Numbered from the stretch's first letter, positions 38,215 through 43,805 are shown. The stretch: 64,000 nucleotides of DNA from Eledone cirrhosa (GCA_964016885.1 OZ024744.1:117180001-117244000); one strand, 5' to 3'. The notes: generated from the sequence alone by a model not told the origin. Numbers and translations are program-made.

Positions 38215-38217
<3 letters not shown>

Positions 38218-41200
38218 AAGTATGTACACGTACATACATATATGTATACCGACGTACAGTAGTATGTATATATATATATACATACATGCACACATATATA
38301 TATGCACGTATGGATTCACCGAACATTTATTATAATGCTCGGTGTGTTTGTAAACAAACATCCCGTATTAAGCCGTAGTGTCTAGCAACCACCGTTGCTC
38401 GTTTGTTCAACACTGACAAAGGAACGCTGTACTAGTTTCAAGCTTGTTAGCTATCGTCAGCAACGTATACCTTCCTGCCAGATTGTTGAACGTATATACT
38501 TACCTTATGCATATTAACGGCTGAGTAGCCCAATATGCATATCGAGTGGGTTAATCGGCCGGGTGCACCGAAAACGATAAACGGAAAAAATGAAACGATA
38601 TTTCATTTCCCACTCTTAGTACGGCTGTTACTTAAATATAAGTATGTACACGTACATACATATATGTATACCGACGTACAGTAGTATGTATATATATATA
38701 TACATACATGCACACATATATATATGCACGTATGGATTCACCGAACATTTATTATAATGCTCGGTGTGTTTGTAAACAAACATCCCGTATTAAGCCGTAG
38801 TGTCTAGCAACCACCGTTGCTCGTTTGTTCAACACTGACAAAGGAACGCTGTACTAGTTTCAAGCTTGTTAGCTATCGTCAGCAACGTATACCTTCCTGC
38901 CAGATTGTTGAACGTATATACTTACCTTATGCATATTAACGGCTGAGTAGCCCAATATGCATATCGAGTGGGTTAATCGGCCGGGTGCACCGAAAACGAT
39001 AAACGGAAAAAATGAAACGATATTTCATTTCCCACTCTTAGTACGGCTGTTACTTAAATATAAGTATGTACACGTACATACATATATGTATACCGACGTA
39101 CAGTAGTATGTATATATATATATACATACATGCACACATATATATATGCACGTATGGATTCACCGAACATTTATTATAATGCTCGGTGTGTTTGTAAACA
39201 AACATCCCGTATTAAGCCGTAGTGTCTAGCAACCACCGTTGCTCGTTTGTTCAACACTGACAAAGGAACGCTGTACTAGTTTCAAGCTTGTTAGCTATCG
39301 TCAGCAACGTATACCTTCCTGCCAGATTGTTGAACGTATATACTTACCTTATGCATATTAACGGCTGAGTAGCCCAATATGCATATCGAGTGGGTTAATC
39401 GGCCGGGTGCACCGAAAACGATAAACGGAAAAAATGAAACGATATTTCATTTCCCACTCTTAGTACGGCTGTTACTTAAATATAAGTATGTACACGTACA
39501 TACATATATGTATACCGACGTACAGTAGTATGTATATATATATATACATACATGCACACATATATATATGCACGTATGGATTCACCGAACATTTATTATA
39601 ATGCTCGGTGTGTTTGTAAACAAACATCCCGTATTAAGCCGTAGTGTCTAGCAACCACCGTTGCTCGTTTGTTCAACACTGACAAAGGAACGCTGTACTA
39701 GTTTCAAGCTTGTTAGCTATCGTCAGCAACGTATACCTTCCTGCCAGATTGTTGAACGTATATACTTACCTTATGCATATTAACGGCTGAGTAGCCCAAT
39801 ATGCATATCGAGTGGGTTAATCGGCCGGGTGCACCGAAAACGATAAACGGAAAAAATGAAACGATATTTCATTTCCCACTCTTAGTACGGCTGTTACTTA
39901 AATATAAGTATGTACACGTACATACATATATGTATACCGACGTACAGTAGTATGTATATATATATATACATACATGCACACATATATATATGCACGTATG
40001 GATTCACCGAACATTTATTATAATGCTCGGTGTGTTTGTAAACAAACATCCCGTATTAAGCCGTAGTGTCTAGCAACCACCGTTGCTCGTTTGTTCAACA
40101 CTGACAAAGGAACGCTGTACTAGTTTCAAGCTTGTTAGCTATCGTCAGCAACGTATACCTTCCTGCCAGATTGTTGAACGTATATACTTACCTTATGCAT
40201 ATTAACGGCTGAGTAGCCCAATATGCATATCGAGTGGGTTAATCGGCCGGGTGCACCGAAAACGATAAACGGAAAAAATGAAACGATATTTCATTTCCCA
40301 CTCTTAGTACGGCTGTTACTTAAATATAAGTATGTACACGTACATACATATATGTATACCGACGTACAGTAGTATGTATATATATATATACATACATGCA
40401 CACATATATATATGCACGTATGGATTCACCGAACATTTATTATAATGCTCGGTGTGTTTGTAAACAAACATCCCGTATTAAGCCGTAGTGTCTAGCAACC
40501 ACCGTTGCTCGTTTGTTCAACACTGACAAAGGAACGCTGTACTAGTTTCAAGCTTGTTAGCTATCGTCAGCAACGTATACCTTCCTGCCAGATTGTTGAA
40601 CGTATATACTTACCTTATGCATATTAACGGCTGAGTAGCCCAATATGCATATCGAGTGGGTTAATCGGCCGGGTGCACCGAAAACGATAAACGGAAAAAA
40701 TGAAACGATATTTCATTTCCCACTCTTAGTACGGCTGTTACTTAAATATAAGTATGTACACGTACATACATATATGTATACCGACGTACAGTAGTATGTA
40801 TATATATATATACATACATGCACACATATATATATGCACGTATGGATTCACCGAACATTTATTATAATGCTCGGTGTGTTTGTAAACAAACATCCCGTAT
40901 TAAGCCGTAGTGTCTAGCAACCACCGTTGCTCGTTTGTTCAACACTGACAAAGGAACGCTGTACTAGTTTCAAGCTTGTTAGCTATCGTCAGCAACGTAT
41001 ACCTTCCTGCCAGATTGTTGAACGTATATACTTACCTTATGCATATTAACGGCTGAGTAGCCCAATATGCATATCGAGTGGGTTAATCGGCCGGGTGCAC
41101 CGAAAACGATAAACGGAAAAAATGAAACGATATTTCATTTCCCACTCTTAGTACGGCTGTTACTTAAATATAAGTATGTACACGTACATACATATATGTA

Positions 41201-42632
41201 TACCGACGTACAGTAGTATGTATATATATATATACATACATGCACACATATATATATGCACGTATGGATTCACCGAACATTTATTATAATGCTCGGTGTG
41301 TTTGTAAACAAACATCCCGTATTAAGCCGTAGTGTCTAGCAACCACCGTTGCTCGTTTGTTCAACACTGACAAAGGAACGCTGTACTAGTTTCAAGCTTG
41401 TTAGCTATCGTCAGCAACGTATACCTTCCTGCCAGATTGTTGAACGTATATACTTACCTTATGCATATTAACGGCTGAGTAGCCCAATATGCATATCGAG
41501 TGGGTTAATCGGCCGGGTGCACCGAAAACGATAAACGGAAAAAATGAAACGATATTTCATTTCCCACTCTTAGTACGGCTGTTACTTAAATATAAGTATG
41601 TACACGTACATACATATATGTATACCGACGTACAGTAGTATGTATATATATATATACATACATGCACACATATATATATGCACGTATGGATTCACCGAAC
41701 ATTTATTATAATGCTCGGTGTGTTTGTAAACAAACATCCCGTATTAAGCCGTAGTGTCTAGCAACCACCGTTGCTCGTTTGTTCAACACTGACAAAGGAA
41801 CGCTGTACTAGTTTCAAGCTTGTTAGCTATCGTCAGCAACGTATACCTTCCTGCCAGATTGTTGAACGTATATACTTACCTTATGCATATTAACGGCTGA
41901 GTAGCCCAATATGCATATCGAGTGGGTTAATCGGCCGGGTGCACCGAAAACGATAAACGGAAAAAATGAAACGATATTTCATTTCCCACTCTTAGTACGG
42001 CTGTTACTTAAATATAAGTATGTACACGTACATACATATATGTATACCGACGTACAGTAGTATGTATATATATATATACATACATGCACACATATATATA
42101 TGCACGTATGGATTCACCGAACATTTATTATAATGCTCGGTGTGTTTGTAAACAAACATCCCGTATTAAGCCGTAGTGTCTAGCAACCACCGTTGCTCGT
42201 TTGTTCAACACTGACAAAGGAACGCTGTACTAGTTTCAAGCTTGTTAGCTATCGTCAGCAACGTATACCTTCCTGCCAGATTGTTGAACGTATATACTTA
42301 CCTTATGCATATTAACGGCTGAGTAGCCCAATATGCATATCGAGTGGGTTAATCGGCCGGGTGCACCGAAAACGATAAACGGAAAAAATGAAACGATATT
42401 TCATTTCCCACTCTTAGTACGGCTGTTACTTAAATATAAGTATGTACACGTACATACATATATGTATACCGACGTACAGTAGTATGTATATATATATATA
42501 CATACATGCACACATATATATATGCACGTATGGATTCACCGAACATTTATTATAATGCTCGGTGTGTTTGTAAACAAACATCCCGTATTAAGCCGTAGTG
42601 TCTAGCAACCACCGTTGCTCGTTTGTTCAACA
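38215..42632 (-). mobile_element. Tandem array of a 422-bp hammerhead-containing unit (non-LTR retrozyme-like), ~10.5 copies
   Basis: Period 422 (unit marks at 38221, 38643, 39065 ... 42441); units look identical by eye; 10 hammerheads on the minus strand. Confidence 0.9.
38425..38465 (-). ncRNA. Type I hammerhead ribozyme, first of 10 minus-strand copies (every 422 bp)
   Basis: CGTTG-CTGACGA-T-AGC-TAACAA-GCT-T-GAAA-CTAG-TA-CAGCG; stem I extends over 38405-38491. Confidence 0.88.
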
Positions 42633-43805
42633 ATCTGGCAGGAAGGTATACGTTGCTGACGATAGCTAACAAGCTTGAAACTAGTACAGCGTTCCTTTGT
42701 CAGTGTTGAACAAACGAGCAACGGTGGTTGCTAGACACTACGGCTTAATACGGGATGTTTGTTTACAAACACACCGAGCATTATAATAAATGTTCGGTGA
42801 ATCCATACGTGCATATATATATGTGTGCATGTATGTATATATATATATACATACTACTGTACGTCGGTATACATATATGTATGTACGTGTACATACTTAT
42901 ATTTAAGTAACAGCCGTACTAAGAGTGGGAAATGAAATATCGTTTCATTTTTTCCGTTTATCGTTTTCGGTGCACCCGGCCGATTAACCCACTCGATATG
43001 CATATTGGGCTACTCAGCCGTTAATATGCATAAGGTAAGTATATACGTTCAACAATCTGGCAGGAAGGTATACGTTGCTGACGATAGCTAACAAGCTTGA
43101 AACTAGTACAGCGTTCCTTTGTCAGTGTTGAACAAACGAGCAACGGTGGTTGCTAGACACTACGGCTTAATACGGGATGTTTGTTTACAAACACACCGAG
43201 CATTATAATAAATGTTCGGTGAATCCATACGTGCATATATATATGTGTGCATGTATGTATATATATATATACATACTACTGTACGTCGGTATACATATAT
43301 GTATGTACGTGTACATACTTATATTTAAGTAACAGCCGTACTAAGAGTGGGAAATGAAATATCGTTTCATTTTTTCCGTTTATCGTTTTCGGTGCACCCG
43401 GCCGATTAACCCACTCGATATGCATATTGGGCTACTCAGCCGTTAATATGCATAAGGTAAGTATATACGTTCAACAATCTGGCAGGAAGGTATACGTTGC
43501 TGACGATAGCTAACAAGCTTGAAACTAGTACAGCGTTCCTTTGTCAGTGTTGAACAAACGAGCAACGGTGGTTGCTAGACACTACGGCTTAATACGGGAT
43601 GTTTGTTTACAAACACACCGAGCATTATAATAAATGTTCGGTGAATCCATACGTGCATATATATATGTGTGCATGTATGTATATATATATATACATACTA
43701 CTGTACGTCGGTATACATATATGTATGTACGTGTACATACTTATATTTAAGTAACAGCCGTACTAAGAGTGGGAAATGAAATATCGTTTCATTTTTTCCG
43801 TTTAT
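42625..43805 (+). mobile_element. Inverted arm of the 422-bp array (~2.8 copies, 3 hammerheads)
   Basis: Reverse complement of the unit; hammerheads start at 42651, 43073 and 43495; ends CCGTTTAT into (AT)n. Confidence 0.9.
42651..42691 (+). ncRNA. Type I hammerhead ribozyme (predicted cleavage after GUA at 42686)
   Basis: CTGACGA 42656-42662, GAAA 42677-42680, palindromic ACTAGT stem III, stem I CGTTG/CAGCG. Confidence 0.88.

Follow-up and report, generated by a model that had tools for sequence, protein, structure and literature searches.

Two-armed retrozyme insertions in the genome of Eledone cirrhosa suggest a Penelope-type mode of integration

Retrozymes of the non-LTR type (LTR, long terminal repeat) have been defined with Penelope-like elements (PLEs) proposed as their machinery (PMC7229834), and Li et al. 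(10.64898/2026.07.22.740005) favor a PLE origin while leaving the mechanism open. PLEs have inverted arms, tails that often lie at one end and (TA)n targets, features explained by endonuclease (EN) resolution or by self-priming (PMC8557442, PMC3846280). In a lizard PLE, both target strands are nicked and extended, two internal start sites bound the tail and a dimer is predicted (PMC11167929). The mechanism of retrozyme mobilization and the origin of inverted PLE structures have both been called open in this literature, and the enzyme that moves animal retrozymes has so far been argued from co-occurrence and from homology to PLE pseudo-long terminal repeats (pLTRs). Here we describe a hammerhead ribozyme repeat in a window of 64,000 nucleotides of Eledone cirrhosa (GCA_964016885.1 OZ024744.1:117180001-117244000; host assembly, 3.0 Gb). 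The sequence of the locus, at positions 38215 to 43805 of the window, suggests a young two-armed retrozyme copy with a Penelope-type insertion footprint. We give an even chance to the reading that this is a nonautonomous non-LTR retrozyme copied in trans by a PLE through two-site twin priming.

Architecture and hammerhead of the locus

An earlier note on this DNA had described a single tandem array. Tandem Repeats Finder reports two arrays, and a script comparison with the predicted monomer places them on opposite strands, as two opposed arms. The left arm (38215 to 42632, minus strand) comprises 10.47 identical 422-bp units with 10 hammerheads, and its RNA-sense 3′ end is site A (unit base 215/216), which abuts (TA)n. 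The right arm (42625 to 43805, plus strand) comprises 2.80 identical units with three hammerheads and has its 3′ end at site B (unit base 275), which abuts TA. Units are numbered from the predicted cut (42687 = base 1), which puts A at 42902 and B at 42961 in the first full unit of the right arm. Both RNA-sense 3′ ends thus point outward, into TA, and the arms meet head-to-head in an 8-bp overlap, GTTCAACA (42625 to 42632), derived from an inverted repeat at the base of the extended stem I of the hammerhead. The 59 nucleotides between A and B (43747 to 43805, plus strand) form a "tail" found at the right end only. The left flank is the (TA)n target (38167 to 38218), and the right flank (43806 to 43952, plus strand) consists of short TA and then a 3′ fragment of a second repeat, E2 (90% identity), that stops at the long end of E2, with (TA)n beyond it (43947 to 44019). 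Since both flanks are (TA)n here and at most other loci, no target-site duplication is readable (no systematic search was made).

The period is 422 bp, with 0 mismatches to the monomer over 4418 + 1181 bp, so that the approximately 13 identical noncoding units of the earlier note are exact. No open frame of 150 codons lies within the array, and the reverse transcriptase (RT) and GIY-YIG open reading frame (ORF) of an autonomous PLE is absent. The predicted 422-nt monomer between two cuts (42687 to 43108, plus strand; RNA form inferred) has 38% GC and is noncoding and strongly self-paired, with a folding z of −7.4 that arises in part from a TA palindrome.

A type I hammerhead was matched by a script descriptor in 13/13 units (10 minus, 3 plus), while 1 of 10,000 dinucleotide shuffles was matched. 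Every hammerhead has CUGACGA, GAAA, the palindrome ACUAGU and GUA, as previously noted, but stem I is longer than the CGUUG/CAGCG given before, namely, ACGUUG/CAGCGU extended to ∼24 pairs across 42625 to 42711. In this plus-strand copy (42625 to 42711) the core starts at 42656, stem II (42664 to 42675) is a U-U mismatch plus 4 bp, and stem III is ACUAGU at 42680 to 42685. Cuts are predicted after 42686, 43108 and 43530, with 10 more on the minus strand. The palindromic stem III is probably that of a dimer-type hammerhead, in support of the earlier assignment to non-LTR retrozymes with this ribozyme form. The check by hammerhead search proposed earlier succeeded with the type I descriptor and failed with Rfam, in which no hammerhead appeared among 150 of 164 matches listed or in a focused search; Rfam matches to microRNA families were rejected, as they fall below gathering and arise from TA hairpins. 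The descriptor matches one polarity only (other ribozyme types were checked just via Rfam), where a viroid-like RNA replicon would carry ribozymes in both or show RNA-RNA replication; the term "replicon" of the earlier note is therefore without support. Among 12 hand-picked variants of 53, 96% of stem cells are paired, with two two-sided changes, which is weak support for pairing because the copies are related. Among 39 recurring changes between subfamilies, only the free position 7 is affected in the core.

Family size and the two fixed ends

A one-unit query gave at least 337 matches (39 scored of 207 candidates, 150 listed), with identical units on many contigs. Together with 0 differences in 5.6 kb at the window locus, this agrees with the very recent insertion claimed before. 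Exact matches to a 28-base core pattern number 25,151 in the genome (control, 0), a lower bound for the hammerheads of the family. Alleles that recur mark out successive subfamilies, which reach down to ∼77% identity and have units of 420 to 465 bp or longer. The window form, with 40 substitutions in 104,187 bases at loci chosen for identity to it, looks like the youngest subfamily, whose arms reach 16 units; its allele at base 317 makes up <1% of depth in short-read run X1. Judged from these sequences, this is a large, recently active, newly found non-LTR retrozyme family.

Several loci depart from simple repetition. An array at the end of L149 and in L122 alternates two unit types in an 842-bp higher-order repeat; in most repeats, one of the types has a pair of stem II disrupted. 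A 16-unit arm at L152 carries variants absent from its partner arm, a longer TA run is common to both arms at L150 and L151 (L150-L151), and entire two-armed insertions are tandemly duplicated at L070 and L093.

Three samples bear on the ends. The first consisted of the window and 36 other clusters among the matches listed (37 loci), of which 30 are two-armed and seven one-armed. All the two-armed loci have the minus arm on the left and the plus arm on the right, i.e., head-to-head. One A end (216) and one B end (275) were found in 28 of 29 readable insertions (P = 6e-8 against free choice); one of the 30 runs into an N gap, and three were read after extra sequence. The exception, L040, is B/B, with arms from different subfamilies. 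The second sample added 60 loci selected through a junction pattern for either A or B, which fixed one end in advance, and totaled 74 two-armed insertions after removal of three tandem duplicates. In this sample 62 were A/B (52 by script, 10 by eye or extra sequence), three were of the same type (L126, L040 and L088, the second end of L088 lacking TA) and nine had an unreadable or truncated end. The third sample took 40 clusters in order from the core-pattern list. Here 18 were two-armed by script, all head-to-head, and 14 of these were A/B (12 by script, 2 by eye), four were truncated and none was of the same type. L184 is a further A/B insertion. Among neighbors within 1 kb in the first 100 core matches, the order minus-plus occurred 10 times and plus-minus 0 times. 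Junction patterns with (TA)n matched 451 B ends and 1471 A ends (controls, 0). An inverted 5′-truncated arm, a tail at one end and a (TA)n target, by which PLE insertions are recognized from sequence, are all present. The fixed two-end, head-to-head footprint supports the PLE dependence suggested in the earlier note.

Smaller regularities were also seen. Mini-insertions with a 30- to 42-bp B arm and an A arm of ∼7 to 14 bp recur with repeated junctions (L067, L068, L072, L078, L080, L086, L103). One list shows a strand skew (B-left/A-right, 12; A-left/B-right, 3) that is absent in the core-picked sample, and the A pattern matches 789 times forward and 682 times in reverse.

The perfect identity of the units could point to an assembly artifact (a collapsed or expanded repeat, or fold-back reads), and a satellite inverted by DNA rearrangement could also place two arms head-to-head; the unit number at the window locus is as assembled. 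Fixed polarity, fixed ends and distinct junctions occur at >100 loci, however, and locus-specific variants are resolved. Short-read contigs of run X1, which may come from the source sample, show strand switches, returns after 422 bases and loose ends in TA at 42902 and 42961, in agreement with the assembly (run X19 contigs match only the TA-rich part of the unit, and the low-depth runs X4 and X5 gave four contigs each). After a simple inversion the two breakpoints would be neighbors in unit coordinates, which is not so here. We consider these explanations scarcely credible, and the dispersed family of many loci removes the earlier reservation about assembly expansion.

Priming, template and proposed mechanism

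Junction overlaps (n = 55) are of 1 to 8 bp in 33 insertions and of 12 to 24 bp, in TA palindromes, in four; three junctions are blunt and 15 have inserts (no null was computed). Single priming followed by fold-back self-copying of the complementary DNA (cDNA) would be favored by the window junction, which lies at an inverted repeat, and by three junctions at the TA palindrome. Junctions are nevertheless scattered over the unit and are not tied to a hairpin. In fold-back copying, moreover, the template arm limits the copied arm, and this limit is exceeded in 36 of 54 insertions if B is taken to come first and in 26 of 54 if A is. Either arm type may be the longer: among 30 insertions with an arm of <1 unit, the longer arm is A in 17 and B in 13. 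Arm length does not argue against a related form, self-priming on antisense RNA (proposed in PMC3846280). We regard this whole class as very improbable.

Both arms could instead start at one site, with the 59-nt difference arising later by endonuclease resolution or trimming. The PLE tail has been ascribed to EN-mediated resolution (PMC8557442), and two apparent two-template loci, L040 and L205, are both long/long. However, site A is precise, with 65 ends at base 216, and sits on a TA-like motif that could base-pair with target DNA; A arms of just 12 to 19 bp are found beside short B arms; and two RT start sites map to the tail ends in vitro (PMC11167929). A start at one site is thus improbable, if less so than fold-back copying.

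With respect to the template, the 5′ ends of 65 arms of >1 unit are evenly spread, and a search for enrichment at the cut site was negative (3 of 65 versus 3.1 expected), for which reason jumps of the RT from one cut monomer to another were discarded as an explanation. Across the cut site, ∼338 passes have three indels, in two old loci. Even 5′ ends and few indels at the cut site argue for a template continuous across that site, i.e., a circle or an uncut multimer. The dispersed arrays with variable start phase that were expected earlier are found as regards dispersal and 5′ ends, but 3′ ends occur at two constant positions. (One-armed L041:1999, of 8.5 units, has its 5′ end at the predicted cut site, and L031 and L081 start ≤7 bases from it.) Arms of one locus differ at 73 of 1596 site comparisons (4.6%; 55 loci) versus 12.5% when permuted, with 0/2000 as low. 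Private alleles occur in both arms nine times (seven loci) and in one arm only 119 times, the latter as expected from later mutation, and at L123 locus-private alleles recur in 9/9 passes. Arm lengths correlate in 29 end-picked loci (rho = 0.69) and nonsignificantly in 25 of the first set (0.33), but this was not used as evidence.

A circular template is plausible. A somewhat unlikely alternative is the same PLE two-site twin priming on a linear, largely uncut multimer, with long arrays kept by DNA-level tandem amplification and circles as a by-product. It is compatible with all end, junction and haplotype results; cleavage may be slow with a weak stem II and only 2 bp in stem III; 8/9 frog retrozyme dimers were uncut in vitro (10.64898/2026.07.22.740005); and the main PLE substrate in vitro is uncut RNA (PMC11167929). 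Yet copying of a linear multimer would only shorten arrays, whereas arms of the youngest subfamily have up to 16 units; the hammerhead core is kept across diverged subfamilies; the private alleles of L123 fill all its passes; and relatives in coral, mussel and axolotl accumulate as circles (PMC7229834).

The insertion rule is read from the sequence, whereas the enzyme, the dimer, the cleavage and the circle are inferred; the events would be as follows. First, arrays would be transcribed, and hammerheads, probably paired via the palindromic stem III, would release 422-nt monomers to be ligated into circles, by analogy with relatives. Second, a PLE RT/GIY-YIG complex, probably a dimer, would bind one RNA and nick both strands of the (TA)n target seen at the loci. 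Third, one DNA 3′ end would prime at B and the other at A, 59 nt upstream, on UAU-type microhomology, to give the ends observed. Fourth, each RT would proceed for a distance that varies, passing round the circle in long products, and the cDNAs would join at a few chance-complementary bases into the observed head-to-head structure. Afterwards, some arrays may grow or homogenize as DNA, and some loci may owe part of their array length to such amplification. The single rolling-circle cDNA proposed previously cannot yield two opposed arms.

Several observations weigh against copying of a circle by a PLE at two sites. The retrozyme unit shares no DNA with PLE 3′ regions (28 GIY-YIG loci; 150 scored of 10,596 candidates), in a small sample from which separately inserted retrozyme copies had been set aside. 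One insertion, L126, is clearly A/A. The lizard enzyme in vitro uses both start sites on either strand, needs no target homology and prefers uncut RNA (PMC11167929). Even 5′ ends and shared haplotypes equally fit an uncut linear multimer, for which the alternating dimer of L149/L122 and the variant found in 13 units of one arm only at L152 also speak, and arms of mixed subfamilies occur at L040, L047, L082 and L109. The L122/L149 repeat was rejected as proof of a dimeric circle; its outer units differ, and the right arm is without the shared allele.

More generally, PLE integration may be an obligately paired asymmetric reaction, in which a dimer uses two fixed sites of a single RNA to prime both target strands, and both RTs roll at once when that RNA is a retrozyme circle. 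We propose this tentatively, at slightly less than an even chance. If true, inverted pLTRs, one-sided tails and the tandem arrays of retrozymes would be products of one mechanism, readable from thousands of young insertions.

Candidate partners and comparison with known systems

A GIY-YIG search of the genome gave 10,596 candidates. Five PLE families have frames with RT and C-terminal GIY-YIG (18 long-frame loci), predicted to reach 1096 codons. Three PLE proteins inspected have the CX2-5CxxC linker that characterizes Neptune/Nematis (PMC8557442), and a comparison with solved structures found no match to a PLE protein. A rule of one short and one long end holds in two PLE families (P1, 4/4; P3, 3/3) and in E2 (8/8 two-armed copies, two of them with other DNA between the arms). 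Tails are of ∼63 to 68 nt in P1, ∼55 to 60 nt in P3 and 59 nt in the retrozyme, and the folds of the retrozyme and PLE tail regions have only generic hairpins in common. At L205 (1155 to 1830), a retrozyme arm whose end is B meets 143 bp of a P1 long end head-to-head, and the 3.2 kb retrieved contains no further P1 sequence. Like L040, this is an apparent two-template event; L205 may be one two-template insertion, the alternative being a nested insertion. From this single case, P1 appears to be the best partner candidate.

PLE RT fragments beside L184, L185 and L195 look like neighboring or nested insertions and were not taken as partner evidence. Further PLE-like RT families lie beside retrozymes at L184, L185, L190 and L195, the L184 retrozyme being nested midway in a two-armed PLE. 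E2 itself is a second, unrelated hammerhead repeat, young (identical copies, 143 candidates) and two-armed in (TA)n, with ends ∼85 nt apart (window 43806 to 43952; L036, L058, L137-L148). L137, L140, L143, L159, L162, L164 and L167 contain several additional families of hammerhead-like repeats, many of them inverted pairs within runs of TA.

Elsewhere in the window, long near-perfect hairpins (∼100 to 140 bp) at 36196 to 36519 may represent a small foldback element. Several kinds of broken LINE-type frames for endonuclease and RT, recognized by eye in translations, occupy 3100 to 10000, 12500 to 16300, 25400 to 36100 and 53000 to 56600. Homogeneous minisatellites at 44488 to 47888, 19883 to 21165, 50206 to 51114, 59045 to 59771, 17432 to 17767, 63332 to 64000 and 61177 to 62200 (units of 68 bp ×50, 115 bp ×11, 48 bp and 100 bp, each at two places, and 74 bp ×14) have no hammerhead by the script descriptor. 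A run of 200 N, which may be an assembly gap, lies at ∼48212 to 48411.

Among known systems, L1 twin priming, in which two target 3′ ends prime one RNA and leave a 5′ inversion joined by microhomology, offers one comparison. Its second primer acts at variable internal sites, whereas here both sites are fixed and both products can comprise several units.

Retrozymes, their link to PLEs and the inverted and tail structures of PLEs are already published; the two-armed retrozyme architecture, or a cephalopod retrozyme, was not found in the literature searched, most subscription papers lying outside it, and none of the papers found there describes this sequence family. The main text of PMC7229834 is without the term "inverted," and the terms "tail" and "orientation" are absent from the accessible text of 10.64898/2026.07.22.740005. 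The family shares with metazoan non-LTR retrozymes, as described in these two papers, a noncoding tandem unit of 150 to 450 bp, GC of <45%, a single type I hammerhead in each unit, arrays dispersed in the genome and co-occurring PLEs. Its hammerhead matches the canonical metazoan type I form (stem I of 6 bp, stem II of 4 bp and stem III of 1 to 2 bp with a palindromic loop; PMC4209133), and the U-U at the base of stem II is likewise found in axolotl HHR_Amex2 (PMC7229834). Published retrozymes, in the text accessible, are head-to-tail, with target duplications when present, and differ from this family in that an inverted arm, fixed ends, a tail and a (TA)n target are not described for them; the pLTR homology of frog retrozymes (10.64898/2026.07.22.740005) has no counterpart found here.

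EN-positive PLEs of the Neptune/Nematis and Naiad types share with this family the inverted 5′-truncated head-to-head arm, a tail that often lies at one end only, (TA)n, a type I hammerhead and two internal start sites. Those elements have a tail of 30 to 40 nt and an ORF, whereas the tail here is 59 nt, no ORF is present and both arms may be many units long. The insertions described here carry the whole PLE footprint, and the strict rule of one short and one long end holds in four unrelated families of one genome. The in vitro result (both strands, two start sites, a predicted dimer) is thereby linked to genomic products, with a predicted 422-nt RNA, two mapped sites and candidate enzymes.

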